A DNA stretch of 64,000 nucleotides from an uncultured Planctomycetales bacterium. GTDB taxonomy: Bacteria; Omnitrophota; Gorgyraeia; Zapsychrales; JBDRMG01. The notes under the pieces were generated by a model. It was not told the DNA's origin. It was given only the letters and a program-made list of their open reading frames with translations, and made no database searches. Every line of letters begins with the position of its first letter. The first letter of the stretch is position 1. Positions 1-45,275 of the stretch are shown here, piece by piece. The position numbers were made by a program, and so were the translations under genes. The stretch spans positions 113,068-177,067 of the forward strand of contig CAYZIY010000002.1 of the NCBI GenBank assembly GCA_964478715.1. Reading direction: 5' to 3'.

Positions 1-328
1 GCTTTACAACATTGGAGAGCGTTCTAAAATCAAAATACGTATTGTTGTTTTTACAGTCAGCTTGCTGCTTATCAGGCGATTTTTATGGAGATTGAAAGAA
101 AAATATATCATTCGGGACTTTCATCCTCTGATCTTTTTCTATCTATTGGGTTTATCGCTGCTATTTATGAGCCTTGTTCTTTTTATCCGACTTATCGTTT
201 TATGGATTATTAAGGGACAAATCCCGCCTATCAATGCTCTTTCGTGGATGTTTAGCGTAGCGATCGGCCTGCAGTCACTCTTTTTTGCGATGTGGTTTGA
301 TATGGATTCTAATAAAGATTTTCGATGA
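1..328 (+). CDS. Partial CDS (5' end outside window). Hydrophobic C-terminal region of a membrane protein, possibly the tail of a membrane glycosyltransferase.
   Basis: The frame of ORF 62..328 stays open back to base 2 with no stop. The translation has two or three predicted TM helices. It is followed by a polysaccharide-synthesis cluster. Confidence 0.4.
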   Translation, partial: LYNIGERSKIKIRIVVFTVSLLLIRRFLWRLKEKYIIRDFHPLIFFYLLGLSLLFMSLVLFIRLIVLWIIKGQIPPINALSWMFSVAIGLQSLFFAMWFDMDSNKDFR

Positions 329-1338: not shown

Positions 1339-1354
1339 AGGAATTAATATCCCA

Positions 1355-1670
1355 TGAACAATAATATCAAGACATACGAGCCAAACAATGGTTGCTGAAG
1401 CCGCTGTTTTGGGGACACTGCCTATTAGGTTTAATAATTATGTTGGTAAATTGAGTTATCTGGAAGAACTGGAACATAAATACCATCTTACCTTTCGAAT
1501 CAAAACATCCGAGCAGGAGAAATTATTGGAAAACAATTGATGCTTTACTTGCTATGCCAAATCTTAAAGAGGAATGGATGAAACGGCGCGATCGGATGCT
1601 TAATAACATGGTTGATGTAGTGGATTTTATGGTGGAATATATCGAAAATTTGAGAATAGATAGGAGATAG
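1355..1670 (+). pseudogene. Degraded C-terminal remnant of a second DUF354 paralogue, broken by frameshifts and stops.
   Basis: Two frames translate to EAAVLGTLPIRFNNYVGKLSYLEELEHKYHLTFRIKTSEQEKLLENN and DALLAMPNLKEEWMKRRDRMLNNMVDVVDFMVEYIENL. These align with the C-terminus of the upstream gene (ECACLGVPSIYVNSQKLGYIDQERKYGLVFDI...NEWKQKRDEFVKSKIDVTKYI). There is no intact ORF. Confidence 0.5.
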
Positions 1671-1671
1671 G

Positions 1672-2775: not shown

Positions 2776-2797
2776 TTTAAGGCAGCTTCTGTAAGAT

Positions 2798-4030: not shown

Positions 4031-4677
4031 CAAGGAGTAGTAACGTGAAGTTAAATAAAGTTCCCACGCTTAGAATTCATTCAGTTAATCGAATCAGTTT
4101 AGATATGCAATTAATTAAGCATCTTAAGAAGCTCAAGCCGGGAGTAGTTTTGGACGTTGGTTCGAGTGCCTCACCCTATAAAAAATTTATTCCTGCAACA
4201 AAATATCTTCGACTTGACATCAACAAGGAAAGTCATCCAGATATCTGTTGCGATGTCCATCAGATAGAGTGGGCATCAAAGTTTTTTAATACAATTATTG
4301 CTTCCGAAGTTCTTGAGCATCTAGCGAATCCTGCTGTAGCTATCGAAGAAATGAGGAGAGTATTAAAATCTGGCGGAATATGCATTCTGACCACACGGTT
4401 CATGTATCCGTATCATCCTTGTCCAAAAGATTATTATCGATTTACAAAAGATTCACTGCAGATATTGTTTAGTAAATTTAGCACAATACAGATAGTGCCA
4501 CATGGTAATCGTATCCAATTGCTGTGGCAGATTATAAACAACAGTGGCAATAAGAGCTGCGGGAAACTCCAGCGAATATTCAACATCTTTCTGAATATAT
4601 TCAATCCCATATTTGCAAGAATCAACTTCATCGATAAGGGTTATCCACTCGGTTTTATTGTTGTTGCACAAAAATAG
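4027..4677 (+). CDS. Class I SAM-dependent methyltransferase.
   Basis: Motif I VLDVGSSASPY. Methyltransf_11/23-like acidic loop ASEVLEHL. Start overlaps the upstream stop (ATGA-type coupling). Confidence 0.8.
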   Translation: MTRSSNVKLNKVPTLRIHSVNRISLDMQLIKHLKKLKPGVVLDVGSSASPYKKFIPATKYLRLDINKESHPDICCDVHQIEWASKFFNTIIASEVLEHLANPAVAIEEMRRVLKSGGICILTTRFMYPYHPCPKDYYRFTKDSLQILFSKFSTIQIVPHGNRIQLLWQIINNSGNKSCGKLQRIFNIFLNIFNPIFARINFIDKGYPLGFIVVAQK

Positions 4678-4701
4678 TAACTAACCTTTATAGGTATTGT
4701 A

Positions 4702-5562
4702 ATGATCAAGCGAAGAAAAAAAGGTATTTCTGTTCTCGTTCCAACACAAAACTCACAGAAGACAGTGAAGCTATGCATAGAGTCATTTCTCGAATTTGGT
4801 GATGAGATTATTGTTGTTGATAATGGATCTAGGGATGAAACTATTAATATTGTTACCACGATTGCACAGCAATGTGAGAAGATTAAATTTTTTAATGCCC
4901 CAGACCTAGTTGATCTGTATCAGAATCGGCAATATGCTTTTGAGCGTTCCCAATATAACTGGATTGCACGAATCGATAGCGATTACGTCGCCTATACATC
5001 GGGACCGCAGGACATAAAGGAATTGAGACAACTGATAATCAATGCGAGACCATCTATTCGACCGATCGCCTATGGCATTAAGCAAGTGAATCTATATCGT
5101 GATTATTGGCACACGGGAATCGAAAGAGAGCAAAGACACAACAATAGTGGGCCGCATGTAGCATCACCGGTTGTGAGTCTGCCAGCAAGGATTATTCAAT
5201 ATTTTCCAGGAATGAAGTTTGCTAGACTTGGACGTTGGGAAGGTGTCAGATTTCAGAGATTTCTACAACATAGACATTTGGACGAGCCCTATTGGTTTCA
5301 TTGTGAATTCAAGAGTGACCTTGACTATTTCTATCGGTCAGAAAGAACAAATTGGAGACAGCTAGGCGATTATCGGCGCTTTCCGACGCTGCGCTCTTAT
5401 ATTGAACACATTCTCCCGGATAAATACGGAACGAATAATATCGACGAAGCTTGTCGTAACTATATTGAAAAACATTTGAATCGTTTTCTAATGACTTATG
5501 AACCGTTAAGGTATTATTCTTATCCTGAAATAATAAAAGAGGAAATGGAGAAATGTACGTAG
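4702..5562 (+). CDS. Glycosyltransferase family 2.
   Basis: ISVLVPTQNSQKTVKLCIESFLEFGDEIIVVDNGSRDET matches the GT2 DXD/nucleotide-binding N-terminal region. Confidence 0.85.
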   Translation: MIKRRKKGISVLVPTQNSQKTVKLCIESFLEFGDEIIVVDNGSRDETINIVTTIAQQCEKIKFFNAPDLVDLYQNRQYAFERSQYNWIARIDSDYVAYTSGPQDIKELRQLIINARPSIRPIAYGIKQVNLYRDYWHTGIEREQRHNNSGPHVASPVVSLPARIIQYFPGMKFARLGRWEGVRFQRFLQHRHLDEPYWFHCEFKSDLDYFYRSERTNWRQLGDYRRFPTLRSYIEHILPDKYGTNNIDEACRNYIEKHLNRFLMTYEPLRYYSYPEIIKEEMEKCT

Positions 5563-5596
5563 TTGACTAGGTATTTTATAACTGAAAGAGTAATTT

Positions 5597-6382
5597 ATGG
5601 ATAGTAAAGAAAAGGCGGATCTATCGAGAACGTTACAAGAAAAGTGTTATGCGTTTCCTTATCATTATCTTGTGGAGTTTAGTCAGGAAAACTTAGATAG
5701 CTTCTCTCAGGTTAAAAATAATCCCACAGGATACAGATATGCGGCCTATCTTAAAAGAGTTCTCGATGCTGTCAGCAAAGAAAAGTTTAAGAGTGTGGCA
5801 GATGTTGGGTGCGGCGATGGGTTCTTTATCAAAATATTTTCAAAACAATTTACGAATAAACGAATTGTCGGAATAGATCTTTCCGAAAATGCGCTGATGT
5901 TTGCGCGCTTACTTAACGCAAATAATGCAGCTGAGTTTTTCAATTATAATATCTTGGAAAAGAGGCCTGACGAGAAATTTGATATTGTGACTTTAATCGA
6001 AGTGCTCGAGCATATTCCACCTGATCAGATTGACTTGTTTCTTGGTGCGATTTGCAAAATGTTGCAGGATGATGGGAAGTTAATTGTGACGGTTCCTTCG
6101 GTCAATTTATCCATTGCAAATATTCAAAGACATTTTCAACATTTTAATGAAGAGAAGCTAAGGAAAGCGTTATCTCAGCATTTTGACTGTATTGAGATTG
6201 AATATATCAATAAGCAAAATTACATATCGAAAATAATACATAAAATCTTTACAAACTCGCTTTTCATATTAAACCATAAACGTTTAGCCAGTGCCCTTTT
6301 TAGATATTATCTTAATAGGTTTCTGCACGCCGACAAACATAATGGCCTAAGGCTTTTTGCCTTATGCAGAATAAATAGGTAA
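5597..6382 (+). CDS. Class I SAM-dependent methyltransferase.
   Basis: VADVGCGDGFFIKIF (motif I) and IEVLEHIPPD. Confidence 0.8.
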   Translation: MDSKEKADLSRTLQEKCYAFPYHYLVEFSQENLDSFSQVKNNPTGYRYAAYLKRVLDAVSKEKFKSVADVGCGDGFFIKIFSKQFTNKRIVGIDLSENALMFARLLNANNAAEFFNYNILEKRPDEKFDIVTLIEVLEHIPPDQIDLFLGAICKMLQDDGKLIVTVPSVNLSIANIQRHFQHFNEEKLRKALSQHFDCIEIEYINKQNYISKIIHKIFTNSLFILNHKRLASALFRYYLNRFLHADKHNGLRLFALCRINR

Positions 6383-6390
6383 ATAAACTA

Positions 6391-7863
6391 ATGCCGAATA
6401 ACGAAACAACATTATATCAAAAGTTTCACGAAACTATTAAACATGGGTTAATTTATGGGTTTGGCTCCATTATCCAAAGAATCGCAGGAGTTTTCTTAAT
6501 TCCTCTTTACACTGCCTGTTTTTCGACATCAGAGTATGGAGTTTTTGGACTATTGATGGCAACAAGTCAAATATTTGGAGTATTTATTTTGGCAGGGATG
6601 AGCACAGCATTCATGAGATCTTTCTATGATTATCAAGACAGGGCTGAAAAAAGGATGGTTGCATCCACTGCCATGTCTGTAATTTTTGTAAATAGTTTAG
6701 GAATTGGACTTCTGGGGTTATTATTTTCTAAACAAATTGCAATGTTCTTATTTCAAGATGCTCAGTATGGCATCTATATAGTTATGGTGGTGTTCATGGC
6801 GATTTTTTACCAGTTAAATTCTATACCGCTCGCAATTTTTCGCGTAAAAAAGAAATCCATTTTGTATATTTCATGCCAAATTACATTTTTCTTATTTCAA
6901 ATTGGAGCCGTGGTTTACTTTGTTGCGATAAGACAAATGGGTATTTTTGGAGCTATATATGGGTATGTTTTAGCGAGTCTGGCCTTGTTTGTCATTTTAA
7001 TAATTGTTACGCGGAAAGATATCACTTTTCGATTCTCTTTTTATGAAGCTCGAAAGATGTTACATTATGGAGTTCCTTTATTGTTGACAGGTTTAAGTGC
7101 TTTTCTTTTTAATTATATCGATCGGTATATGCTCGCCTTTTATGCCAGTTTTCATGAAGTTGGGCTTTACAACTTAGGTTATCAATTTGGCATGATTATG
7201 ATGGCTATTCTTGTAACACCTATGAAATTTATTTGGGGACCAATGTTTCTTTCTGTCAAGGACCACAGTAATGCCCATGCATTTTATGCGAGAATGCTTA
7301 CATACTTAACATGTGTTGGGTCATTGCTTTTTTTGATGTTGGCTGTTCTCTCAAAAGACGTTATACAGCTTTTTGCTAAACAGAGTTATTGGGATGCCTA
7401 TCATGTCGTTCCCGTTATTGCACTTTCTTACTTAATATGGAGTCAGCGAAGCGTGCTAGATGTAGCTATTCATTTAAAACGAAAAACAAAAATATCTGCA
7501 TTCTATTTTATTGCGGGAGCGATGATCAATATTGTTTTAAATTTAGCACTTATTCCAAGGTACCAAATGATGGGCGCAGCTTACGCTACATTAATTGCTT
7601 TTGTCGCGATGGTAATCGCTTCCTATGTTATTAATCAAAGATTAATTAAGATTGATTATGAGTGGAATAGAATTCTTAAGATATATTCGACTGCGATATT
7701 AATTTATTTTGTCACACCGTTAATTAACATAAGCAATGTATATCTTTCTCTTTTAACAAAGTCGGGATTCATTATTGTATGCTTTCCGTTGCTTCTTATG
7801 ATGCTTGGGTTTTATACATCGATAGAATTAGAAAAAATAAAAAAGATTTTAAGAATCACATAG
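6391..7863 (+). CDS. wzx: Polysaccharide/O-unit flippase, MOP superfamily (Wzx-like).
   Basis: 490 aa with about 12-14 hydrophobic helices. It sits inside the glycosyltransferase cluster. Confidence 0.75.
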   Translation: MPNNETTLYQKFHETIKHGLIYGFGSIIQRIAGVFLIPLYTACFSTSEYGVFGLLMATSQIFGVFILAGMSTAFMRSFYDYQDRAEKRMVASTAMSVIFVNSLGIGLLGLLFSKQIAMFLFQDAQYGIYIVMVVFMAIFYQLNSIPLAIFRVKKKSILYISCQITFFLFQIGAVVYFVAIRQMGIFGAIYGYVLASLALFVILIIVTRKDITFRFSFYEARKMLHYGVPLLLTGLSAFLFNYIDRYMLAFYASFHEVGLYNLGYQFGMIMMAILVTPMKFIWGPMFLSVKDHSNAHAFYARMLTYLTCVGSLLFLMLAVLSKDVIQLFAKQSYWDAYHVVPVIALSYLIWSQRSVLDVAIHLKRKTKISAFYFIAGAMINIVLNLALIPRYQMMGAAYATLIAFVAMVIASYVINQRLIKIDYEWNRILKIYSTAILIYFVTPLINISNVYLSLLTKSGFIIVCFPLLLMMLGFYTSIELEKIKKILRIT

Positions 7864-8003
7864 GATGTCTAAAAGTGATCTTCCCCCGAAAAAGTGGACA
7901 CTTAGAAGAGTTGGTGATAGCATGACAACCGGCTCAGAAGGAGGTGTCCGATGGGAGACAATGGCAAGAAAAAGTGTAATGCTCCCCATTAGTCAAGGGG
8001 AAT

Positions 8004-9127: not shown

Positions 9128-10046
9128 TATAAAAGAGACGGGGAACGGTTCCGATTCATAGACGAAAACGTTTCTGTCTTTCCGCTCGGGAAGATGTGCC
9201 GGATTTTGGAAGTATCAAGGAGCGGTTATTACGCGTGGTAGAAGCGACCGAAGAGTCAACGCAGGATCAATAACGAAACATTGCTCATTGAGATACAACG
9301 TGTGTTCATGGAGAACGACGCGAATTTTGGGAGCCCGAGGATCTGGAACGAGTTAAATAACGTCCAAGGCATCGGGTGTTCCAGGAACCGCGTGGCCCGA
9401 CTGATGCGTGAGGCGGGGCTGGCAGCGATCCATAAACGCAAGTTTAAAGTTACAACGAACTCGAAGCACAACTGGCCGGTGGCGCCCAATTTATTGGAAC
9501 GCAATTTCAACATTGATGAGCCCAATAAAATTTGGGTGACGGATATCAGTTATATCTGGACATGGGAAGGCTGGCTGTATTTGGCGTTTGTGTTAGACTT
9601 GTTCTCACGAGGCGTAGTTGGACTGACCATGTCGAACAGAATGACGGATGAATTAACGCAGAATGTGCTAAATCAGGCCATTGGCCGACGGAATCCTGAG
9701 TCTGGGCTGATTCATCATTCGGACCGTGGCAGCCAATACGCCAGCGGCGATTATCAGGCGCTGCTTAAAAAGCACAAAATCACACCGAGCATGAGCCGTA
9801 AAGGCGATTGCTGGGATAACGCTGTTGCTGAGAGTTTTTTACACACGTTAAAAGTTGAGAAAGTAAACCGTTATAGGTTTAAAACGAGGGATGAAGCAAA
9901 AAGAGAAATCTTTCGTTATATCGAGATGTATTACAACCGGAAAAGAACGCATTCATCCCTCGGGTATCTTAGCCCGTTTGAGTACGAAAAGCGTTCGGTT
10001 CCATCTTTATTAACCGTCCACTGATCTGGGGAAGGTCAACAGTAAA
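9128..10046 (+). mobile_element. 5'-truncated second IS3-family element (orfB only). Its orfA/left end was replaced by the nested IS at 7980-9127.
   Basis: The region 9140-9280 encodes the typical OrfB N-terminal segment (…KMCRILEVSRSGYYAW*KRPKSQRR…) with an in-frame TAG at 9239-9241. No orfA or left inverted repeat is present. The right boundary is uncertain. Confidence 0.55.
9281..10024 (+). CDS. IS3-family transposase OrfB (integrase core) of the truncated copy. Probably non-functional.
   Basis: IWVTDISYIWTWEGWLYLAFVLDLFSRGVVG...HSDRGSQYAS...CWDNAVAESF matches the DDE integrase. Upstream in-frame stop. No cognate orfA. Confidence 0.75.
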   Translation: MLIEIQRVFMENDANFGSPRIWNELNNVQGIGCSRNRVARLMREAGLAAIHKRKFKVTTNSKHNWPVAPNLLERNFNIDEPNKIWVTDISYIWTWEGWLYLAFVLDLFSRGVVGLTMSNRMTDELTQNVLNQAIGRRNPESGLIHHSDRGSQYASGDYQALLKKHKITPSMSRKGDCWDNAVAESFLHTLKVEKVNRYRFKTRDEAKREIFRYIEMYYNRKRTHSSLGYLSPFEYEKRSVPSLLTVH

Positions 10047-11261
10047 ATGAATCTTGAAAGCACTCAAGTTCTTTATATTGCATATGGGGGGATCATGCAA
10101 AATGTTTTTGATTCTCAAGTATTACAGTATGTGAAGTGCCTGAGGGAACGCAATGTCGGAATTACATTAATTGTTTTTGATCAATTTAATAAGATTTTCT
10201 TAAAAGAATATTTCCAAAAGAGAAAGAAGATCAAGGAAGATCTCGGCGAGCATGTTTATTGTATGTTTAGATTACCTCTCATGGGACGTTTCAGCGTTCA
10301 GATTGATGCGTTTAGACTACATTTATATTTTAAGAAACATTTTCAATCTAAATACAAGAAGATTATATTTCATTGTCGTAATTTATGGGCATCTTATCTT
10401 GCTTTGAAAAGTATAAAAAACAAGGAGAATATATTTCACGTTTTAGCGGATATCAGAGGAGATCAAATAGCAGAATATCGATGCTATTACCCAGATTCGC
10501 TACTCACCAGATGGAAAATAAAAGAACTTCAATTAGTGGGGCATTACACTTGCAAGCACGTAACAAAATTGTTTTGTGTTTCCTCAGTTTTGGCAGAAAC
10601 TTTGGAGAAAAAATATTGTATCAATACGGATGATATTATTGTGGTGCCGACATGCGTCGATCATAGAATATATTCATCTAACTATGATTCAAGAAAGGCT
10701 CTGAGAAAGAAACTTGGCATTGCCGATAAGTTTGTTATTGTTTACAACGGAGGGCTGCAGGGGTGGCAAAACTTCGAAGGCCTCATCCAGATAGCGACAA
10801 AAATCAGTCAGATAGATAGCACCACATTTTTCTTTGTTTTAACAAAAGATGTTTCTACAGCAAAAACATATCTTGAAAAACATTCTTTTCCAAAAGAACA
10901 GTATAAGGTTATGAATTTGCAATATGGTAAAATGGCGAAATTTCTATCGTGCGGCGATCTCGGGCTGCTTGTTAGAAAGCAGAATGATGTGAATAAAGTT
11001 GCAAGCCCAACAAAATTTGCCGAATATCTCGCATGCGGAATGCCAGTATTGGTGAGTCCGAATATCGGTGATACGGAATCAATCATCAAGAATGAAAATG
11101 TTGGTTTCGTTTTAGGAAATGATTTGCAGTTAGCAGCCTTACTGAAGAGGATAAAAGATGATCGTGAAGCCCTTGCAGCTGATTGCATGAAGGTCGCAAT
11201 GAAATATTATGACTTAGAGACCTATCTTGATCAAATTCAGAATATTTATGATTCAATATAG
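10047..11261 (+). CDS. Glycosyltransferase family 4.
   Basis: N-terminal VLYIAYGG. C-terminal KFAEYLACGMPVLVSPNIGDTESIIKNENVGFVL (EX7E-like GT4 motif). Confidence 0.8.
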   Translation: MNLESTQVLYIAYGGIMQNVFDSQVLQYVKCLRERNVGITLIVFDQFNKIFLKEYFQKRKKIKEDLGEHVYCMFRLPLMGRFSVQIDAFRLHLYFKKHFQSKYKKIIFHCRNLWASYLALKSIKNKENIFHVLADIRGDQIAEYRCYYPDSLLTRWKIKELQLVGHYTCKHVTKLFCVSSVLAETLEKKYCINTDDIIVVPTCVDHRIYSSNYDSRKALRKKLGIADKFVIVYNGGLQGWQNFEGLIQIATKISQIDSTTFFFVLTKDVSTAKTYLEKHSFPKEQYKVMNLQYGKMAKFLSCGDLGLLVRKQNDVNKVASPTKFAEYLACGMPVLVSPNIGDTESIIKNENVGFVLGNDLQLAALLKRIKDDREALAADCMKVAMKYYDLETYLDQIQNIYDSI

Positions 11262-11310
11262 TGTAAATGAAATCGATATCTCATTTTTAAATTAAATTCT
11301 AAAAAATGGC

Positions 11311-12411
11311 ATGCCCATGAAAGGAATCGAATCACAGAAATATAGAAAAGTTAGATTAGGAGTATGCCTACGACTTCACAACAAGCAGGCGGCTGAGCAT
11401 CTTAAGCCACTTCTTGACCATCCTTCTGTTACCAAGCTTCACATTGTCCGCCATGAGCCGATCAAGGGCCTGGCGTCATCAAAGGTTCAATATTACATTA
11501 TTAATAATAAAATGAAATGTCGTCGATTTTTTCTCATGTACCAAAAATGCAAGGAATTAGTCAGGAATAATCAAGTTGACGCATTTGTTTCCTTTAACCC
11601 AATTCCGTATGGATGTATTTCAGCCCTAGCTTCAAGATCAAAGAATATCCCTTTTCATTTTGGATTCATTGGTAGCGATTGGTACGGAAATTCGCAGTCA
11701 TTATTCTGGAGAATATTCAAATCGCTACTTAAAAAAGCTAGCTTTATAACAGTGACCGGAAAAAGTATGCTTAACCAAACAATCAGCATGGGTTTAAATC
11801 CAGAAAATATCGCTGTTTTACCGCATTCTATTGATCTTGAGCGATTTCAGATTTGTGATCAAGGAGTTAAGAAATATAATTTTATTTTCGTTGGTCAACT
11901 AATTAAACGTAAGCGTGTCGATCTCATCCTGCAAGCTTTGAGCATGATTAGAAAAGAATATCAGAATACAAAATTGTGCATTGTTGGGGATGGTCCATTA
12001 CGAAAGGCTTTAGAACAACAAGTGCGGCGGCTTGCGTTAACCGATGCAGTCGACTTTATTGGGCAAACGGATTCCGTACAAAACTATCTTAATCAGGCTA
12101 AGATTTTAGTCATGGCATCTGATATGGAAGGATTTCCATTTGCTATAGTTGAAGCGCTTTGTTCTGGGCTCGTACCAGTAAGCACAAGAACAGGAACCAT
12201 CGATGATGTGCTGATTGATGGCAAGAGTGGATTTATCGTTGAGTGCAGGGATGTCAATGGTTTGGCGAATAGTATGGTTCGTTTGCTTAAGGATCACAAT
12301 TTATATCAACAAATGCAGGAGGACATTTTCAAGCTGAGAAAAGACTATACTTATGAGAAGGCAACAGACATTTGGGATCAGTGGTTAAGTAAGCTAGAAA
12401 AAACAAGCTAG
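11311..12411 (+). CDS. Glycosyltransferase family 4.
   Basis: GFPFAIVEALCSGLVPVSTRTGTIDDVLIDGKSGFIV is a canonical GT4 C-terminal motif. Confidence 0.85.
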   Translation: MPMKGIESQKYRKVRLGVCLRLHNKQAAEHLKPLLDHPSVTKLHIVRHEPIKGLASSKVQYYIINNKMKCRRFFLMYQKCKELVRNNQVDAFVSFNPIPYGCISALASRSKNIPFHFGFIGSDWYGNSQSLFWRIFKSLLKKASFITVTGKSMLNQTISMGLNPENIAVLPHSIDLERFQICDQGVKKYNFIFVGQLIKRKRVDLILQALSMIRKEYQNTKLCIVGDGPLRKALEQQVRRLALTDAVDFIGQTDSVQNYLNQAKILVMASDMEGFPFAIVEALCSGLVPVSTRTGTIDDVLIDGKSGFIVECRDVNGLANSMVRLLKDHNLYQQMQEDIFKLRKDYTYEKATDIWDQWLSKLEKTS

Positions 12412-12562: not shown

Positions 12563-14538
<1,976 letters not shown>

Positions 14539-17649: not shown

Positions 17650-17856
17650 GATAAAATCAAAATGTAAAAAGCAAAAATTAAAATGGTCGGGATATATTTG
17701 GCCATTAAAAGTAGACTTGTAATTCAATCCTGCCTGCAAAAAAATTCGCGTCTCTTTTCAAAAATTGATATAATAGCCCATCATTTTTAAATGGAGTTTC
17801 TTTTTCAATTTTAGTTTTCTGTTTTTTATTTTTGAATTTTAATTTTTTATATTTCT

Positions 17857-20800
17857 ATGATTTATCATTCCGATTTTGTCCATCTGCATGTTCACACGCA
17901 ATACAGTCTTCTAGATGGAGGCTGCCGTATCCCGGAACTCATGCAAAAGGCTTCCGATTTGCGTATGCCCGCTATTGCCATGACCGATCACGGAAATCTA
18001 TTTGGCACCATCGATTTTTATCAAAAAGCCATCAAATATGGAGTGAAACCGATTATCGGCTGTGAAATGTATTTAGCGCCGGGGAGCCGTTTTGAGAAAA
18101 GACCGGGAGTGGGTGCCTCAGGCCATATCGTTTTATTATGCAAAGACGAAGAAGGCTATCGCAATCTTCTCAAGCTGGTTTCCATGGGGTATTTGGAAGG
18201 TTTTTACTATAAGCCGCGCATCGATAAAGAGATTCTTCAAAAACATCATAAAGGCTTGATCGCTTTGTCGGCTTGTCTTAAGGGTGAGGTCTCATCGCAT
18301 ATAATCGAAGGACGCTTAGAGGCTGCTACGTTGATTGCCGATGAATACCGCCAGATCATGGGTGAGGGAAATTTTTATTTGGAGATGATGGAAAATGGTA
18401 TTCTTGAACAAAAAATGGCGAATAAAGGCTTGATGGAGATCTCCAAGAAATTAGGAATTCCGGTTGTGGCTACCAATGATATTCACTACATTGAACGATT
18501 TCAGTCATCGGCCCATGAAGCGCTTTTGTGCATCCAGACGCAGGCCACTTTAGATGACCCCAAGCACATGCGCATGCAGACAGATGAATTCTATTTTAAA
18601 ACGCCTGAAGAAATGAAGAAGCTGTTTACCTATTGCCCTGAAGCGATTAAAAAAACGATTGAGATCGCTGAGAAATGCAATCTGGAAATGAATTTTAATA
18701 AGATCCACCTTCCGCGTTATGACCCGCCCGGTGGAATAACCAAAGAAGTTTTTCTCAGAGAACTTTGTGAGGAAGGTTTATCCAGACGTTACGAAACCAA
18801 GACCCCCCAGCTCAAAGAACGATTAGAGCATGAACTTAAGATCATCAAAGAAATGGGCTTTGTTAGCTACTTCTTAATTGTCTGGGATTTTATCCATTAT
18901 GCCAAGCAGAATAAGATTCCCGTCGGTCCGGGCCGTGGGTCTGCGGCGGGAAGTTTGGTCAGCTATCTGCTTGAAATCACAGATTTAGATCCGCTGCGTT
19001 ATGGCCTGTTCTTTGAGCGTTTCTTAAATCCTGAACGCATGGGAATGCCGGATATCGATATTGATTTTTGTTATGAGCGGCGTAATGAAGTGATTGAATA
19101 TGTCACTAATAAATATGGAAAGAATAATGTGGCCCAGATTATTACCTTTGGAACGATGCAGGCCCGTGCCGCGATTCGCGATGTTGGCCGTGTCATGGGC
19201 GTTCCTTACGGGGATGTCGATAAAATCGCCAAAATGGTGCCGCCGGATCCCAGCATAAAACTGAAACAGGCTGTCCAGATTGAGCCGCAGTTGAAGAAGC
19301 TTTATGACGAAGACGAGCGGGCCAAGCGTATTATTGATACGGCTATGGTTCTCGAAGGTCTGAACCGTCATGCGTCTATTCATGCGGCGGGTGTGGTGAT
19401 TTCCGATAAGCCTCTGACAGAATACGTTCCGCTTTTTAAGACTAGCGATGATCAGATCACGACCGGCTTCTCGATGGACGGGATTGCCAAAATCGGTCTG
19501 CTCAAAATGGATTTCCTAGGCTTGCGCAATCTGACGGTTATCAGCAAGGCTATTAAAATCATCAAGGAAACAAAAGGTATTGATATTGATAGTAGAAATA
19601 TCCCTTTAGATGATCAAACAACCTTTCGTTTGCTGGGAGAAGCGCTTAGCCAAGGTGTTTTTCAACTGGAAAGCGGGGGAATGCGTGAACTTCTGAAGCG
19701 GATTAAACCCAACCAGTTTGAAGATCTGATTACGATATTGGCGCTTTATCGACCGGGGCCTATCGGAAGTGGCATGCTGGATGATTATATCCGCCGAAAA
19801 AAAGGCGAAGTGAATGTCCGTTATGATCACCCCAAGCTGGAGCCGATTCTTAAGGAAACTTATGGGATCATCGTTTTTCAGGAACAGGTTATGCAGATTG
19901 CAAGTATGGTGGCCGGATTCAGCCTCACCAAGGCCGATCATCTCCGAAAAGCGATGAGTAAAAAAATCCCTGATGTTATGGAGAAAATTCGTCAGGATTT
20001 TGTGGTGGGTTGTCAAAAGATAAGCAAGATTCATGAAGGTTTGGCCAACAAATTGTTTGATTTAATTGATTATTTCTCCGGATATGGTTTTAATCGAAGC
20101 CATAGCGCGGCTTATGCGTTGATCAGTTATCGGACAGCTTATTTGAAAGCCAATTATCAGGTTGAGTTTATGTGCGCCTTGCTGACTTGTGAGCGTGATA
20201 ATACGGATAAAGTGGTTGAATATGTAAAAGAAGCCGAAACAATGGAGATCAAGGTGCTCCCACCTGATGTCAATGAAAGCTTTCAGGACTTTAAGGTGAT
20301 TGATGATCAAACAATCCGTTACGGTTTGCTGGCTGTAAAAAACATCGGAAGCGGCGCGATTGAAAACATTGTTCATGCCAGATCCCAAGGTTCTTTTCAA
20401 TCCTTATTTGATTTTTGTCAGCGCGTGGATTTGCGCAGTGTAAATCGAAAGGTTGTTGAAAGTTTGATCAAATGCGGTGCCTTTGATTTTTTGGGTCTGA
20501 ATCGTTCGCAATTGATGGCTGTTTGCGAACGGGCCATAAATGCGGGCGCCAAGCATCAGAAAGAAAAGGCCAGCGGGCAGTTCAGTTTTTTTGAAATGGC
20601 TGAAACCAGTGAGCATTTTCGCGATAAAATTGAAGAAATTCCGGATCTCAAGGAATGGCCCCAAGCCCAGATTCTTTCCTATGAAAAAGAGCTTTTGGGA
20701 TTTTATTTAAGTGGTCATCCTTTAACCCGTTATTCGGTTGAAGCGAAAGAATTTACGGATTTTCCAATTTCCGATTTAATCAAGGCTGTTGAAAGCCAAG

Positions 20801-21291
20801 AGGTTCGCTTGGTGGGTCTGATTGATCACGTAAAATTGACTACCACAAAAAGAACCAACGAACGGATGGCTATTTTGACAGTCGAGGATGAAACGGGGCA
20901 AACGGAAGTTGTTGTTTTTCCCTCTACCTATCCGTCTGTGGCGGCGGAACTTAAAGAGGGAACCGTTGTTCTTTTGCGCGGGCGGGTGAGTTTTCGCGAT
21001 GAGGCTCCCAAGCTGGTGGCTAATGATATCATTCCGATCGATCGCGCCTATCAGACCATTAAGTCTATCGATGTCGATTTATCGGATGTTAATGAACAAG
21101 GACTCAATCATCTCAAAGAGAAATTGGCGATGTTTCCGGGTCGAATTCCGGTCTTTTTAAGACTCAATACCAATAACCATAAAAGTGTGCAGATTTTAGT
21201 CGGAGAGGATTATTACATCACTCCGAGTTCGGATTTTATGGAAGAGTTAAAGGATATGGTGGGAGTGCAGAGCTTTTCATTCAAGCTTTGA
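17857..21291 (+). CDS. dnaE: DNA polymerase III alpha subunit.
   Basis: 1144 aa with PHP domain start FVHLHVHTQYSLLDG, GSAAGSLVSYLLEITDLDP, and an OB-fold C-terminus. Confidence 0.95.
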   Translation: MIYHSDFVHLHVHTQYSLLDGGCRIPELMQKASDLRMPAIAMTDHGNLFGTIDFYQKAIKYGVKPIIGCEMYLAPGSRFEKRPGVGASGHIVLLCKDEEGYRNLLKLVSMGYLEGFYYKPRIDKEILQKHHKGLIALSACLKGEVSSHIIEGRLEAATLIADEYRQIMGEGNFYLEMMENGILEQKMANKGLMEISKKLGIPVVATNDIHYIERFQSSAHEALLCIQTQATLDDPKHMRMQTDEFYFKTPEEMKKLFTYCPEAIKKTIEIAEKCNLEMNFNKIHLPRYDPPGGITKEVFLRELCEEGLSRRYETKTPQLKERLEHELKIIKEMGFVSYFLIVWDFIHYAKQNKIPVGPGRGSAAGSLVSYLLEITDLDPLRYGLFFERFLNPERMGMPDIDIDFCYERRNEVIEYVTNKYGKNNVAQIITFGTMQARAAIRDVGRVMGVPYGDVDKIAKMVPPDPSIKLKQAVQIEPQLKKLYDEDERAKRIIDTAMVLEGLNRHASIHAAGVVISDKPLTEYVPLFKTSDDQITTGFSMDGIAKIGLLKMDFLGLRNLTVISKAIKIIKETKGIDIDSRNIPLDDQTTFRLLGEALSQGVFQLESGGMRELLKRIKPNQFEDLITILALYRPGPIGSGMLDDYIRRKKGEVNVRYDHPKLEPILKETYGIIVFQEQVMQIASMVAGFSLTKADHLRKAMSKKIPDVMEKIRQDFVVGCQKISKIHEGLANKLFDLIDYFSGYGFNRSHSAAYALISYRTAYLKANYQVEFMCALLTCERDNTDKVVEYVKEAETMEIKVLPPDVNESFQDFKVIDDQTIRYGLLAVKNIGSGAIENIVHARSQGSFQSLFDFCQRVDLRSVNRKVVESLIKCGAFDFLGLNRSQLMAVCERAINAGAKHQKEKASGQFSFFEMAETSEHFRDKIEEIPDLKEWPQAQILSYEKELLGFYLSGHPLTRYSVEAKEFTDFPISDLIKAVESQEVRLVGLIDHVKLTTTKRTNERMAILTVEDETGQTEVVVFPSTYPSVAAELKEGTVVLLRGRVSFRDEAPKLVANDIIPIDRAYQTIKSIDVDLSDVNEQGLNHLKEKLAMFPGRIPVFLRLNTNNHKSVQILVGEDYYITPSSDFMEELKDMVGVQSFSFKL

Positions 21292-28423: not shown

Positions 28424-30610
28424 CTAGGAATATCTTTTTTTATTGACTTGCGAGAGGATACTTTCGGCCAGAGTTTTTCCGATTTGCGGAATAGAGGCTA
28501 AATCATCAAGGCTGACTGTTCTTAGATTCTGGAGTGTTTTTACTCCCTTATTATGCAGTTGACGCGCGCGATGGCGTCCAATATTTTTTAGAGAAATGAG
28601 CTCCAGAAGATCTTCTAGGATACCGTATTTCATGCGTGTCGAGAGTTCTTCCAGAATAAAAGTCAATTGACGGTGATGGTCTAACTCGGCAATGACCCCG
28701 CAGGCATGTAGGAGCCAGCGGGCGCTTTCCGTGTGACGGTAGACGTCCCCCGGGCCGATTCCGAATTCTTCGCAGATCAAATCTTCTTTTTTCTCATTAA
28801 TCCATTCCAGGTATAAAGATGTTGTTTTTAAAGTAGAGAGATAATGATAGAAATCTTCAAGTGCCGGTAAATCATGGGCCGTCACAATGAATTCATCCGC
28901 ATAGGTTGAAGCGAAGTATTCTAGCCGTCCATAGTCGCTTTTGCCTAAATGGAGAAGATCGGTATCCGGTGTACAGCAAAGTAGATGGAGAATTCCTACC
29001 GGTGAGAACGATTGCTTCTGTTGCATCTTTTTGAGTCCGTCTCGCAGGATGAGGCCCGTGATTGGATCGATATAAAGCCGGCTGATGCATTGGCCAAAGG
29101 CAGTTGCAAAATAACGGAATCCGCTTTTTTCAATAAATTCTTTTTGGGTAAGAAAATCAAAGATGTGACTGATTGTTTCGATCATGTGGATAGTTTGTTT
29201 TTGATGCGAGAGAAACGTGTGGCTGATAAATTCAAACATCCCCTGAACATCATGGACATAACCGCCGGCAATCGAAGAGAGGATGTGCATTCTAAGAGCC
29301 GATTCACTGCCGAGTTTGGAAATGACAGGTTCCGGTTCTGCTTCGATATAGCGTTCAAAAAGGATAGGGACCTCATTGGGAGATTTGGCGACGATTACCG
29401 CTTCACCGAACTGATCATATTTCGGTCGGCCTGCCCGACCCGCGCATTGCTTATATTCGAAAGTGGGAATATAAGTTGAGCCCAAGCCAGCTTCATAGCG
29501 TTTGCAATCTCTGATAATGGCCCGCCGGGCTGGAAGATTAACACCGGCGGCCAGCGTAGGAGTAGAGCAAATAACCTTGATGATATTTTTTTTGAAGTTT
29601 TCCTCAATGAGCTTGCGCTGACGGGGTTTGAGGCCGGCATGATGAAACGCCGACCCGTTGACGGCAGTGTCGGCAAGCTTCTGACAGATTTTTGTTGCCT
29701 CACCCCTTAAGCCGAGAAGTTGTTTGGAGATGGCTGTTAGTTTTTTCTTTTCATCCGGTGAAAGGGTTTGAGCGACTGCTTTGCCCACAATTCGGGATGC
29801 CGCCTGGGCACTGCGGCGGGAATTGACAAAGACAAGGACTTGACCTTTTGAACGCAAGGTATCGATTACCAGCTTACTGAGATCATCATGAGGCTCTTCT
29901 TTGATGAGACGTGTGGCGTCTTTATAAAAATTAATCTTTTCATTAAAATAAACGCCTTCTTTGAGGGGAACAGGTCGCCAACGGCTGATCACTGCCTTGG
30001 CCTTCAGCCATTTTGCGATTTCATCGGCATTGCTGACTGTTGCGCTTAAAGCCACGATTTGGATATGATGATTGATTTGCTTAATCCGAGCGGTCAGGAT
30101 TTCAAGCGTCGGGCCTCGGGAGACGTCATTTAAAAAATGAATTTCATCGAGAACAAGAACATTAAGAGCGCTAATGAGCCATTTAGCGCGAGAACGAAGC
30201 AGTGAATCCACTTTCTCGGCGGTTGCAATTAAGATTTGGTAACGGTTCAGCATTTTGCTGGGACTATCCAGATCGCCAGTTGCAATACCCACCTTAATGC
30301 CAAGAGCGGAATATTTCTCTTTGAAATCTTCAAATTTCTCGCTGGCCAGGGCTTTTAAAGGAGCAATGTAAAGACAACGGCCATTGTTTTCCAGAATGGA
30401 TTTGAGCATGCATAACTCAGCCATAAGGGTTTTGCCGGCAGCCGTGGGAACAGCCATTAGGATGCTTTGATTTTCTAAAAGACCTTTTTTAATAGCTTGC
30501 TCTTGGGGTGGATAAAAACTTTCACATCCTGAACGAGCCAGTATGTCCGCGACCTGTTTAGGGAATCGGTATTTTTGAAGGGTCTGGATTACTTTCATAA
30601 AGGAAAACAT
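28424..30610 (-). CDS. Hel308/Ski2-like superfamily-2 DNA helicase (DEIH box, winged-helix, ratchet and HhH domains).
   Basis: AVPTAAGKT (motif I), VLDEIHFL (motif II), ATPTLAAGVNLPARR, QCAGRAGRP, and a C-terminal HhH (LISLKNIGRHRARQL). Collinear with archaeal Hel308. Confidence 0.85.
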   Translation of the reverse strand: MFSFMKVIQTLQKYRFPKQVADILARSGCESFYPPQEQAIKKGLLENQSILMAVPTAAGKTLMAELCMLKSILENNGRCLYIAPLKALASEKFEDFKEKYSALGIKVGIATGDLDSPSKMLNRYQILIATAEKVDSLLRSRAKWLISALNVLVLDEIHFLNDVSRGPTLEILTARIKQINHHIQIVALSATVSNADEIAKWLKAKAVISRWRPVPLKEGVYFNEKINFYKDATRLIKEEPHDDLSKLVIDTLRSKGQVLVFVNSRRSAQAASRIVGKAVAQTLSPDEKKKLTAISKQLLGLRGEATKICQKLADTAVNGSAFHHAGLKPRQRKLIEENFKKNIIKVICSTPTLAAGVNLPARRAIIRDCKRYEAGLGSTYIPTFEYKQCAGRAGRPKYDQFGEAVIVAKSPNEVPILFERYIEAEPEPVISKLGSESALRMHILSSIAGGYVHDVQGMFEFISHTFLSHQKQTIHMIETISHIFDFLTQKEFIEKSGFRYFATAFGQCISRLYIDPITGLILRDGLKKMQQKQSFSPVGILHLLCCTPDTDLLHLGKSDYGRLEYFASTYADEFIVTAHDLPALEDFYHYLSTLKTTSLYLEWINEKKEDLICEEFGIGPGDVYRHTESARWLLHACGVIAELDHHRQLTFILEELSTRMKYGILEDLLELISLKNIGRHRARQLHNKGVKTLQNLRTVSLDDLASIPQIGKTLAESILSQVNKKRYS

Positions 30611-30648
30611 TTTAACACAAAAATAATTATGTTAGAATACAATTCATT

Positions 30649-31107
30649 ATGAAGATTATTATCCAAAGAGTGAAAGAAGCTTGTGTGAGTATTAACGGCA
30701 AAGAGATGGCCCGTATCTCAAAAGGTATGGTTCTTTTTGTCGGTGTAGGCAAAGAGGATAGTCTAGGCGATGTCGGTTATTGTGTAAAAAAATGTGTCGA
30801 GTTGCGTATGTTTGAGGACAATCAAGGTAAAATGAATTTTTCTTGTCAGGATGTCGAAGGTCAGGCTTTGGTAGTGTCTCAATTTACGCTTATGGGAAAT
30901 TGCAATAAAGGAAGACGGCCGAGCTTTGATGCGGCTGCTCGGCCACAGATGGCTCGCCATCTTTATGAATTATTTATTGAGAAAGTGAAGGAAACAGGAA
31001 TTGTGGTTAAAACAGGTCAGTTTCAAGCTATGATGGATGTTGAGCTTATTAATGATGGTCCGGTGACATTCATTATTGAGAGCCAACAGAGTATAGTTGA
31101 TATTTGA
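30649..31107 (+). CDS. dtd: D-aminoacyl-tRNA deacylase.
   Basis: MKIIIQRV...SQFTL...NDGPVTF, 152 aa. Confidence 0.9.
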   Translation: MKIIIQRVKEACVSINGKEMARISKGMVLFVGVGKEDSLGDVGYCVKKCVELRMFEDNQGKMNFSCQDVEGQALVVSQFTLMGNCNKGRRPSFDAAARPQMARHLYELFIEKVKETGIVVKTGQFQAMMDVELINDGPVTFIIESQQSIVDI

Positions 31108-31111
31108 CACT

Positions 31112-31153
31112 TGATGCCTGATGCCTGATGCCTGATGCCTGATGCCTGATGCC
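31112..31153. repeat. Heptanucleotide microsatellite (TGATGCC)6 plus one degenerate unit, in the dtd-tatD intergenic region.
   Basis: Six perfect tandem copies of TGATGCC sit 5 nt after the dtd stop, followed by TGATAAC. Confidence 0.9.
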
Positions 31154-31213
31154 TGATAACTGAGGACTGGTATCTGAGAACCAACACCCGAAAACTAATT
31201 TTATCATTACACT

Positions 31214-31981
31214 ATGATAGATACCCACGCTCACATCGATCAAATTGAAAACATCGAGATCGCTATGAATGAAGCTTGGGATGCGGGTCTAAGCTCTATT
31301 ATTGCCGTTGGTGTTCATGGATTATCCAATCAAAAAAATCTGGAGCTGCAAAAACAATTCCATAATCCCAAAATATATGTGGCGCTGGGCGTGCATCCTG
31401 AATTTGCCAATCAAAAGCAAGCGGAAGAAGCTGTGCATTTTATTCGAGAAAATGTTAATCAGGCTATAGCGATCGGAGAGATCGGACTCGATTATTGGTA
31501 CCGCTGGGCGCGGAAGAAAGATGAGGTCAAAGAAAAATTAAGATATATCTTTCGTCTTCAACTCAAGATTGCTAAGGAGTCGGGATTGCCGGTCTTAATT
31601 CACAGCCGTGGAGCCTGGGATGACTGCTTTGACATCGTTAACCAACTAAGCATTGAAAAAGCCAACTTCCATTGGTATAGTGGTCCTGTAGATATTTTGA
31701 AGAAGATTTTAGAGAAGGGTTTTTATATATCGTGTACACCGTCATTAGCTTACAGCAAAGAGGCTCGGGAAGCTATTCAGCACACTCCAATTGAACAAAC
31801 ATTGATTGAGACAGATACCCCGGTTGTTTACCGATGCGATAACGGCCAAGGTAAATTCCGTGCTGCTCCCAAGGATGTGCTGCATACACTGAAAATATAT
31901 TGTAAGCTAAAAAAAATAGATCGTGAAAAGGCTAAAGAAATTCTTAATAATAATGCCCGAAAATTCTTTGAAATCGAATAA
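31214..31981 (+). CDS. tatD: TatD-family metal-dependent hydrolase/DNase.
   Basis: MIDTHAHID, EIGLDY and HSRGAW motifs. Confidence 0.85.
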   Translation: MIDTHAHIDQIENIEIAMNEAWDAGLSSIIAVGVHGLSNQKNLELQKQFHNPKIYVALGVHPEFANQKQAEEAVHFIRENVNQAIAIGEIGLDYWYRWARKKDEVKEKLRYIFRLQLKIAKESGLPVLIHSRGAWDDCFDIVNQLSIEKANFHWYSGPVDILKKILEKGFYISCTPSLAYSKEAREAIQHTPIEQTLIETDTPVVYRCDNGQGKFRAAPKDVLHTLKIYCKLKKIDREKAKEILNNNARKFFEIE

Positions 31982-31986
31982 GAAAG

Positions 31987-32316
31987 ATGGATCAATCATT
32001 CGGACGGGGACAATATATCGAAGGAACGAAGCGGCTTGAAGGCGAAATAGTCTTGAGTCGGTACAAGTTGTTCTGTAAAGGAGAGGCGGGCGATTTTCCG
32101 CAGACTTATATTCCGCTTGAGAAAATCGCCAGCATGAAGCTCAAAAGAGGAATGATTGAATTATTTGTTCGGCCTTCGGCTGTTATCCATTATACAGCTG
32201 TATTTAAGGGTGAGCCCGCTAATTGCAAGAAACTTTCTTTAACCTTGGCGATGCGGCTGAATATGAGAAAAAAGTTTTTCAGGGATCAATGGACGGGAGA
32301 AGTCAGCTGGAAATAG
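31987..32316 (+). CDS. Hypothetical protein (109 aa).
   Basis: ORF tightly packed between tatD and the next gene. No recognisable motif. Confidence 0.45.
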   Translation: MDQSFGRGQYIEGTKRLEGEIVLSRYKLFCKGEAGDFPQTYIPLEKIASMKLKRGMIELFVRPSAVIHYTAVFKGEPANCKKLSLTLAMRLNMRKKFFRDQWTGEVSWK

Positions 32317-32326
32317 GACTCAAAGA

Positions 32327-34417
32327 ATGATTAAGAGATTCGGACTCCTCATATTAATTGTGATTGTACTTATCGGATTTATCTGGCTGTATTATTCTTT
32401 TTTACAACCAAAACTGATGGTCGAAGACGTTTTGCCCAAAGACGCCCTCTTTGTCATGAAAATGAAGCATTTCGACCGTTTTCTAGATTTGGTCAGAGAC
32501 ATCGGTTTTTTGAACAAACTGGGTGAAGAAAGTTTTCAGGAATTAGAGAGGCGGTCTTTTTTTAGTCATCAGCAGCTTCAGATGATTTCAAAGGCACAGG
32601 GACTTATTAATCAAGATCAGAGCGGGCTGTTTCTGGCTCGTTTGCTTTTACGAGAGTTTACACTTTCGGCCTATGAAACAGAAACGCAAAGTTCAACAGA
32701 GAAAACAGTTTCTCCTTCAGCGGCAATTCTGATGACAGTTAGGCTCATTCCCTTTATTGATGTGACCGAGTTCTTAACCAGGAAAATTCTCAGCCTTCAT
32801 CCTCGCATTCACATTTCTTCAAGAAAATTCAAAGATTATACGATCTCTAAAATACATTTTTATAAACAACATCAACTTTTTCATGTAAAGATCGGTGATT
32901 TGCTGATTCTCTCGACCGATCGCGACTTGATCGAACATTGCATAAGCGTGGTTAGCGGACACAGAAAATCGTTACAAGAGAATCTTCGCTATCGATCGGT
33001 TGCCCAACGCAATTTCTCATCTCATGACTTGCTTATGTTTTGTGACTTGAACAGAATTTTGACTCAGAGTGAGCGCAGCTTAAATAATTGGATGAAGAAT
33101 TTTCCGGATTCTCAAAATGCTAAGCTGTTTTCTCAATTTCAGCGCTCACTTCAAGGACTGGACTTGATTTATCTCAACGGACGATTTGAAGAAACAGCTT
33201 TCATTAGCACATTCACGATTACAGTTAATCGCAATAAAGCCGGATGGGTGATTAGCAAATTAATCGATGAAAATGCTCAAGAAAACCATACGAAACTTTT
33301 TATTCCTTTTGATGCTTATGCCTATTTCTGGATGGACCGATTGGCTTTACCTGATATTCTAAGTAAGATCAACGGCCATTCCAGATTAAACAGCAGTATT
33401 ATCTTTGTCTCATTTCTTGGGGAGTATTTGAAAGAGATGGAGGGCATTCTCGGCGTTCCGCTTGAGCAAGAGTTGTCTTTCTTGCTTGAAAAAGAATGGG
33501 GTGCGAGCTTGTTTTCCATCGATTCGGATAAAGATATTCCCGAATTTAATTTTATTATTTTCGCTCGGGTAAAAGACCGTTATGAAACAAACCGTCTGAT
33601 TCGCGATCTTTTTGGTTTCAAACCAGAAACATTTACCCAAAAAGCATACAAACAATATAATATCACCGATGTGGCTTTTGCCTATCAAGAGCAGGTCGGC
33701 TTCAGTTATTGTTTTATAGATCAATATGTTTTGCTTTCAAACCATTCGGGCTCTTTGATGCGCGCTCTCGATGCTTATCTTGGCGATCAGGAGTCGCTTT
33801 TGACGCAGCCGTCTTTTGTCGGTCTTAATAATGAAATTTTTAATTGCAGCAATTCGGATTTTTTTATACAGTTTGATCGCCTGCTTCCCCGTTTAAAGGT
33901 TTTCAATCGGTGGATGATTGATTATTTCAAAAAAGAAGAACAACAAATGATTCGCGAAAAAAAACAGGCAAAAGAGCAACTGGCCTTATTGAGTATGAAT
34001 AAAAATACGGCTTATCAGGGAATTGCTAATTTTGAAATGGAAGAGCAGTCCTTGAAGGCAAAGATTGCCAAGGCGAAAAAGGAACAACAGGATATCAAGC
34101 CGCTGGCCCAAGAACTGTTGAAGATACAAGAACGCGTTGACACAGCTCAAAAACGTTTTTCAGCGATTAAAGAAGGAGAAGAATTTCTGCAAAATAAAAT
34201 CGAATACATCGATTTATTTTTGCAGAATTTGGACCCTGAAGCTTATCAAAAGATTTCGGATCAATGGATTAATCTTTTTTTAGAGAGTTTTGAGGGCATC
34301 GACAGTATCGTTTCTCAAACCCGCAATAGCCCAGAGGGTTTCCAGGGTTTGACGGTTGTGAATTTTTCAAAAGAGAATCGATTTAATCCTGCCGTTATTT
34401 TTGGACATAACAAGTAA
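32327..34417 (+). CDS. Hypothetical large membrane-anchored protein (696 aa, N-terminal TM, C-terminal coiled-coil).
   Basis: N-terminal hydrophobic helix LLILIVIVLIGFIWLYY. Coiled-coil KEEQQMIREKKQAKEQLALL...KAKIAKAKKEQQ. No catalytic motif recognised. Confidence 0.55.
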   Translation: MIKRFGLLILIVIVLIGFIWLYYSFLQPKLMVEDVLPKDALFVMKMKHFDRFLDLVRDIGFLNKLGEESFQELERRSFFSHQQLQMISKAQGLINQDQSGLFLARLLLREFTLSAYETETQSSTEKTVSPSAAILMTVRLIPFIDVTEFLTRKILSLHPRIHISSRKFKDYTISKIHFYKQHQLFHVKIGDLLILSTDRDLIEHCISVVSGHRKSLQENLRYRSVAQRNFSSHDLLMFCDLNRILTQSERSLNNWMKNFPDSQNAKLFSQFQRSLQGLDLIYLNGRFEETAFISTFTITVNRNKAGWVISKLIDENAQENHTKLFIPFDAYAYFWMDRLALPDILSKINGHSRLNSSIIFVSFLGEYLKEMEGILGVPLEQELSFLLEKEWGASLFSIDSDKDIPEFNFIIFARVKDRYETNRLIRDLFGFKPETFTQKAYKQYNITDVAFAYQEQVGFSYCFIDQYVLLSNHSGSLMRALDAYLGDQESLLTQPSFVGLNNEIFNCSNSDFFIQFDRLLPRLKVFNRWMIDYFKKEEQQMIREKKQAKEQLALLSMNKNTAYQGIANFEMEEQSLKAKIAKAKKEQQDIKPLAQELLKIQERVDTAQKRFSAIKEGEEFLQNKIEYIDLFLQNLDPEAYQKISDQWINLFLESFEGIDSIVSQTRNSPEGFQGLTVVNFSKENRFNPAVIFGHNK

Positions 34418-45201: not shown

Positions 45202-45275
45202 GCGCCTGTAGCTCAGATGGATAGAGCGCGTCCCTCCTAAGGACGATGTCGGAGGTTCGAATCCGCCCAGGCGCA
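45202..45275 (+). tRNA. tRNA-Arg (anticodon CCU), no encoded CCA.
   Basis: Cloverleaf with acceptor GCGCCTG/CAGGCGC+A, anticodon stem-loop CGTCC-CTCCTAA-GGACG, and T-arm GGTTCGAATCC. Confidence 0.9.

Follow-up and report, generated by a model that had tools for sequence, protein, structure and literature searches.

A pure TGATGCC array in the dtd-tatD spacer of an uncultured bacterium: probably a slippage-born heptamer repeat carried passively between housekeeping genes

Does the run of TGATGCC repeats between dtd and tatD do something for the genes beside it, or has replication simply left it there? The sequence-only reading of the window (the whole 64,000-nt stretch of DNA that was analyzed) had described six exact copies plus a degenerate seventh, and both the sequence and Tandem Repeats Finder bear this out: the program delimits the core at 31112-31157, with period 7, 6.6 copies, 100% matches and a score of 92, and the unit that follows the six pure ones, TGATAAC at 31154-31160, matches at 5/7 positions. 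That the first unit begins at the fifth base past the dtd stop is also right, although the start given for the array, 31108, is the first base after the stop codon and not the first of the array. Every unit carries a TGA, as had been pointed out, and all three forward frames are closed. The features of the locus are collected in Table 1.

Table 1. Repeat units, flanking genes and promoter-like sequences at the dtd-tatD locus, in window coordinates.
Feature	Coordinates	Strand	Remarks
dtd, D-aminoacyl-tRNA deacylase, 152 aa	30649-31107	+	Pfam PF02580, E = 4e-55; homologues
Promoter-like match TTGAGA-17-GATATT	31076-31104	+	In dtd 3' end; 9/12 positions, consensus match only
Left degenerate units TGATATT, TGACACT	31098-31111	+	In-register unit table
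TGATGCC core, 6 perfect units	31112-31153	+	Followed by partial unit TGAT to 31157
Right degenerate units TGATAAC, TGAGGAC, TGGTATC, TGAGAAC	31154-31181	+	In-register unit table
-10-like hexamer TATCAT	31202-31207	+	6 nt before tatD ATG; 45 nt past last perfect unit
tatD-family hydrolase, 255 aa	31214-31981	+	Pfam PF01026, E = 3.9e-55
ORF109	31987-32316	+	40% identical to same-position gene in relative L125
DUF3352 protein gene	32327-34417	+	Downstream, co-directional

Read in register, the array is larger than first described, with 12 units in 84 nt (31098-31181), six of them degenerate and placed around the six pure ones; a separate repeat-family search also puts the start of the family at 31098. 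Along the + strand the order is GTTGATATT TGA CACT (TGATGCC)x6 TGATAAC TGAGGAC TGGTATC TGAGAAC CAACACC. The left units overlap the last two sense codons of dtd (GAT ATT), and the TGA of TGACACT is the dtd stop codon at 31105-31107. The C-terminal tail of Dtd is 2-6 residues longer than in 10 homologues, and its Pfam domain stops at residue 144/152, consistent with the left edge of the array supplying the last dtd codons. On the other side, the perfect part ends 56 nt (about 56-60) before the tatD ATG and the degenerate part about 32-33 nt before it. An in-frame TAA at 31196-31198 and the conserved N-terminus MIDTHAH together settle where tatD starts.

The degenerate units are not worn evenly. 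The right-hand four match the core at 4, 4, 3, 2, 1, 0 and 4 out of 4 units at successive positions, and they look like an older variant array with the consensus TGAKRAC. All six degenerate units together keep T-G-A at 17/18 bases and the final C in 4/6 units, while positions 4-6 are kept at only 5/18. A permutation test on this pattern gave p ~0.001 for the six units and ~0.002 for the right-hand four, with positions picked post hoc. This pattern counts against a purely passive repeat and could mean selection on a TGA-N4 periodicity. It also lends support to an alternative in which the 12-unit TGA-N4 tract (84 nt) would act, as RNA or single-stranded DNA, as a periodic binding platform that controls how the tatD portion of the transcript is translated or how stable it is, or as a ribosome standby site. 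The sequence-only reading had itself named a recognition motif for a DNA-binding protein as an alternative, for which TGA retention is the only evidence. We nevertheless regard TGA retention as a weak lead: the changes in the degenerate units are not independent events, because the right-flank units resemble each other, and a few amplifications of mutually similar right units could explain the pattern.

Whatever its role, the array is far beyond chance at the scale of the window. Perfect repeats with a unit of 4-12 nt and at least three copies number only two in the window, this array and a 9-mer in groEL, and 50 first-order Markov shuffles of the window contained on average 0.14 such arrays per 64 kb, none longer than 3.2 copies. 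Singleton TGATGCC occurrences outside the array are at chance level (10 in the window, ~9 expected), and no second site in the 64-kb window matches two TGATGCC units at two or fewer mismatches. The array had been called rare for bacterial intergenic DNA, and within the window it is the sole one and beyond chance; across bacteria, however, heptamers are the commonest unit among long-unit repeats, according to the accounts in PMC4679880 and PMC4692102, both citing Mrazek 2007.

An assembly artefact or a chimeric join at low-complexity sequence also has to be considered, given that the window derives from a metagenome-assembled genome and that the array interrupts the Logan contigs. Searching for proteins identical to Dtd and TatD retrieved Logan k=31 unitigs from SRR7048227 and SRR7048228, and all four stop exactly 30 nt inside the periodic run, two from the left (L001, L002) and two from the right (L003, L004). 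The same break occurs in two runs, as a k=31 de Bruijn graph should produce once a periodic run reaches 38 nt; the run is therefore at least 38 nt long, with at least five full copies, in both runs, a lower bound being all that unitigs breaking inside an array provide on copy number. Both unitig flanks are identical to the window sequence, the 46-nt array is shorter than a typical short read, and the dtd-tatD-ORF109 order is kept in relatives, and the join across the repeat is therefore correct. An artefact is thus extremely improbable. A metagenome scan with the unique right flank TGATAACTGAGGACTGGTATC returned 0 matches, and a literature search for the exact motif TGATGCC and for the SRA run numbers found nothing.

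Folding gives no sign of structure. As RNA, the 151-nt region has a minimum free energy of -22.5 kcal/mol, no better than shuffles (z = -0.5), with the array mostly unpaired; as DNA, the centroid structure of the 81-nt tract has 0 kcal/mol on the + strand (z 0.77) and -1.3 kcal/mol on the - strand (z -0.25). The tract is thus predicted to be unstructured on both strands, which would suit a binding platform, as TAACTGA repeats are likewise reported to be unstructured (PMC4679880, Table 3). Rfam 15 gave no match in the array at gathering score, its sole match in the window being a tRNA at 45202-45275, and a relaxed search of 30900-31400 (E up to 10) returned nothing credible, with a best E-value of 0.93, sub-threshold and outside the array. 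With no terminator-like site in the dtd-tatD spacer and no Rfam match, we rejected a terminator, a structured RNA and a C/D-box-like or hammerhead-like motif, and the lack of flanking inverted repeats ruled out a MITE-like mobile element. The ORFs that cross the array on the reverse strand, of 54 and 56 aa, run into both genes, and we took them to be spurious. A chain of overlapping UGAUG stop-start mini-ORFs (MPDA) was also set aside, being inherent to the unit, ending 50 nt before tatD and lost in the degenerate units.

The genes on either side bear on whether the array could be a switch. The dtd and tatD genes, ORF109 and the DUF3352 gene all run in the same direction, separated by 106, 5 and 10 nt, and the 5-10 nt gaps suggest that tatD, ORF109 and the DUF3352 gene form an operon. 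Divergent to dtd, at a distance of 38 nt, lies a gene on the - strand (28424-30610) for a Hel308/Ski2-like helicase, with an archaeal-type domain 4 and a C-terminal HHH domain. The sequence-only reading had taken the array for a slipped-strand mispairing substrate and contingency locus, in which changes in 7-bp steps would alter promoter spacing or 5'-UTR length; slippage in the tatD 5'-UTR or spacer would then reversibly and heritably tune tatD and the downstream genes. The slippage component of this proposal fits the pure core and decayed flanks, and a pure six-unit core implies that slippage was recent. Position is also in its favor, at least in part: the array lies 56-60 nt upstream of tatD, known heptamer switches lie ~70-106 bp upstream of their genes (PMC2651432, PMC12721329), and the promoter-like match within the last part of dtd stops just short of the array, which would place the array in the 5'-UTR. 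If that promoter is real, the array would open a tatD 5'-UTR of ~100 nt. Promoter-like sites in the region number 6; shuffles give 3.0 +/- 2.2, an excess of only ~1.4 standard deviations.

The promoter-spacing component, however, finds no counterpart at the locus. No -35/-10 pair straddling the array was found, and the pure copies lie between the dtd stop and the tatD start, so that only the length of the spacer or 5'-UTR would change. There is no hairpin partner for the repeats, whereas the heptamer switch of the Haemophilus influenzae hmw genes depends on 11 or more units and on a long hairpin (PMC12721329). Dtd and TatD, encoded in a conserved cluster, are housekeeping proteins and not surface, restriction-modification or host-interaction proteins, the genes thus not being of the kind on which selection fluctuates. 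Furthermore, the array is single in 64 kb and its host is an environmental organism, while contingency loci of the classical kind typically belong to host-adapted pathogens (PMC4692102). A contingency or tuning locus is thus unlikely.

How tatD is translated touches on the platform alternative. No Shine-Dalgarno sequence precedes tatD, which would fit a ribosome standby site upstream; many other window genes also have none, and others carry AAGGAGG. The hexamer TATCAT is the sole -10-like hexamer near tatD and may mark a leaderless or short-leader tatD start. A comparable arrangement precedes dtd, where TTAACA-15 nt-TGtTAGAAT is followed by 10 nt to the ATG, again with no Shine-Dalgarno sequence (window 30600-30651), and layouts like the dtd and tatD upstream regions also occur at 38750 and 61581. 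In this organism, such layouts may point to mRNAs with no leader or a very short one.

Relatives are informative about the spacer, though none is close. Identical sequences apart, the closest Dtd, at 64% identity, is that of a Candidatus Omnitrophota MAG, and the 90%-identity clusters of Dtd and of TatD have one member each; the host is probably a member of the Omnitrophota without a close sequenced relative. In the nearest relative, the Omnitrophota MAG GCA_043812495.1 (L125), the dtd-tatD-ORF109 order is kept and the spacer, at ~103 nt (6442-6544), is near the window's in length; the two sequences do not align, and the heptamer array is absent from it, which argues against a binding platform. 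The L125 spacer is instead a long imperfect hairpin (RNA minimum free energy -48.1 kcal/mol, z = -7.6), perhaps an element of the REP or attenuator kind. CAGATG occurs in it four times in direct orientation and CATCTG twice, and of the seven CAGATG sites in 9.5 kb of L125, six fall within this spacer. The annotated L125 tatD start (TTG 6496) is probably wrong, as ATG 6545 gives MQLIDTHAH. In two further relatives (L127, L128) dtd runs into tatD, stop and start codons overlapping in TAATG, and in another (L126) a TPR gene is inserted between dtd and tatD. Because relatives show an overlap, a TPR gene or an unrelated hairpin at this place, the dtd-tatD spacer is a site that evolves freely and has taken up different insertions by lineage, and the array is lineage-specific.

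The same motif occurs widely outside this lineage. A scan for (TGATGCC)x3 with one genome per species found at least 120 loci in many phyla. Among the matches listed are arrays in Phycisphaerales, Gemmatimonadaceae, Streptomyces, Burkholderiales and Bacteroidales, as well as in Prochlorococcus MIT 0707 (22 copies), in Erwinia amylovora (15 copies) and in Helicobacter aurati, where 13 copies lie within a 1315-codon ORF. Copy numbers among these matches range from 3 to 22, the window's 6.6 being mid-range, and their gene contexts are heterogeneous, with no consistent context for (TGATGCC)n among the matches listed. Across the loci L005-L124 among the matches listed (848 kb), 103/104 perfect repeats with a unit of 4-12 nt and at least four copies are heptamers, and 31 of these 103 have motifs unrelated to TGATGCC, some abutting one another. 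The process that generates such repeats therefore selects a unit length of 7 and not a sequence. This agrees with heptamers being the most abundant unit in the class of long simple sequence repeats (SSRs) with 5-11-nt units (LSSR 5-11).

Sequence preference may nonetheless play some part. In IMG/VR viral contigs, (TGATGCC)x3 occurs at 9 loci, compared with 2, 1 and 1 for three composition-matched permuted heptamers, so that TGATGCC may be a somewhat favored motif, at 4-9 times its permutations in counts that are small; this excess counts against the passive reading. A cross-phylum family of CTGA-N3 heptamers was rejected, since the units that flank arrays elsewhere, among the matches listed, depart from the core to much the same extent at each of the seven positions (0.63-0.84 match). 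Some single genomes among the matches listed have 3-5 separate contigs with at least three TGATGCC copies: Vicinamibacterales SMAG_U4494 (L022, L118, L122) and the Gemmatimonadaceae BIN3 (L030-L032, L120) and SRP136066_co1_116 (L039, L052, L073, L084). A CCTGAGACAGCCCTGAT-like sequence is common to the upstream sides of the Vicinamibacterales SMAG_U4494 arrays, a hint that the heptamers of that genome belong to a dispersed repeat element.

The binding platform can now be weighed as a whole. Its candidate binder would be an oligomeric or multi-domain nucleic-acid-binding protein of the S1, cold-shock, HutP-like or TRAP-like kind. Besides the retained TGA and final C, the predicted lack of structure and the missing Shine-Dalgarno sequence, it can draw on the one TGATAAC unit, which is a rotation of TAACTGA. 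However, with a single array in the window nothing points to a regulon, 33-56 nt separate the end of the array from the start codon, compared with a few nucleotides in Beggiatoaceae (PMC4679880), and arrays of the same motif elsewhere, among the matches listed, show no retention specific to TGA. The retention statistic, moreover, is both post hoc and built on events that are not independent. The platform is quite improbable.

Its most elaborate form, in which multimeric protein or standby ribosomes would read the 84-nt TGA-N4 ladder, uncoupling tatD expression from that of dtd and setting its level, with the number of pure units as a heritable dial, is very unlikely. If it were true, the locus would hold a TAACTGA-like post-transcriptional device in Omnitrophota, a group in which we know of none.

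We infer instead, at a probability of roughly 70%, a slippage-born heptanucleotide SSR of the LSSR 5-11 class that is carried passively in the dtd-tatD transcript. Arrays that turn over by slippage usually look like this one, with a pure core between degenerate in-register flanks, and the sole array in 64 kb, singletons at chance level and housekeeping neighbors all support a passive reading. The sequence of events may have begun with the decay of an older TGAKRAC-type array, whose left edge would now supply the last codons and the stop of dtd, and continued with a recent expansion of the variant unit TGATGCC to six pure copies. Replication slippage would have generated the array and would keep its core pure. 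The tract would be transcribed as an unstructured intercistronic or 5'-UTR segment with no dedicated function, and presumably neutral changes in copy number would shift the spacer in 7-nt steps, leaving reading frames and promoter spacing untouched.

As it stands the finding matters little, as one more heptamer repeat of a class that is well documented and functionally unexplained, although to our knowledge heptanucleotide repeats have not previously been described in Omnitrophota. The array could serve as a marker for strain typing and microdiversity in an uncultured population. Together with the 103/104 heptamers among the matches listed, it supports a length-specific property of the replication machinery over a sequence-specific function. 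If copy number varies and tunes tatD, the case would be an unusual one, a free-living bacterium using a repeat to tune a housekeeping nuclease.

The rest of the window is ordinary chromosome, with a polysaccharide-synthesis cluster (1-8 kb), groEL, dnaE and one tRNA. The cluster at 1-8000 encodes DUF354, UDP-GlcNAc 2-epimerase, glycosyltransferases, methyltransferases and a flippase-like Polysacc_synt protein, and an additional glycosyltransferase lies at 10047-11261; G+C is 35-38% at 1-8000 and 10001-12000, compared with 41-47% elsewhere in the window. The groEL repeat, comprising the 9-mer GGCGGTATG x3.7 (14494-14526) and ACCAATGCC x2 (together spanning 14472-14526), encodes the terminal tail of GroEL (ORF 12886-14538, Cpn60 Pfam match) and is an ordinary coding repeat. 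Directly upstream of dnaE (17857-21291) is a T-rich low-complexity tandem region (TTTTATT-like, period 6-13) at 17797-17854.

Among described heptamer systems, the TAACTGA repeats of marine Beggiatoaceae, cyanobacteria and some Bacteroidetes (MacGregor 2015, PMC4679880) resemble the window's array in being 7-nt, intergenic and predicted to be unstructured as RNA, in containing CTGA, and in placing stops in all forward frames. Yet the TGATGCC core differs at 2/7 positions from the rotation TGATAAC and is not the TAACTGA unit. TAACTGA repeats form a dispersed network of ~170 sets per genome, mostly of 2-4 copies and a few nucleotides from start codons (PMC4679880), whereas the window has one array in 64 kb that ends 32-56 nt before the ATG.

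For the contingency idea, the best functional precedent by analogy is the (ATCTTTC)n switch of H. influenzae hmw1A/hmw2A, a phase-variable 5'-UTR repeat of an adhesin gene in a host-adapted pathogen (PMC12721329, PMC2651432). Both are heptamers tens of bases upstream of a gene, in which slippage would change length in 7-nt steps. The hmw repeat is transcribed with its gene, as the window's array probably is. However, hmw alleles carry 11-38 units, and switching needs at least 11 units and a long RNA hairpin cleaved by RNase III (PMC12721329); the window's array has six units and no hairpin and precedes a housekeeping gene, and it is not of the hmw type.

The G-rich heptamers GGGAATC and GGGGA(C/T)T of Xanthomonas and Nostoc, which include the cyanobacterial STRR heptamers, form G-quadruplexes and prefer four units (PMC4692102). 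Like the window's array they lie between co-directional ORFs, shortly past a stop codon. TGATGCC, by contrast, has no G-tract, and although the folding tool does not model quadruplexes, the sequence itself excludes them.

The closest fit is with the LSSR 5-11 class. In the accounts given by PMC4679880, PMC4692102 and PMC11868660, Mrazek et al. 2007 defined long SSRs, those with 5-11 nt units occurring mostly in non-pathogens, and proposed that a 7-nt unit would favor slippage because it may equal the length of DNA that the polymerase holds. LSSR 5-11-rich genomes, as these accounts portray them, are typically large and high in G+C, with many arrays, whereas the window has ~42% G+C and one array in 64 kb. 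In the features by which the class is recognized the array is nevertheless alike: it consists of perfect 7-nt iterations set head to tail, within the 5-11 nt range of units, it is longer than random expectation as judged against Markov shuffles at window scale, and it lies in the non-coding DNA of a non-pathogen.
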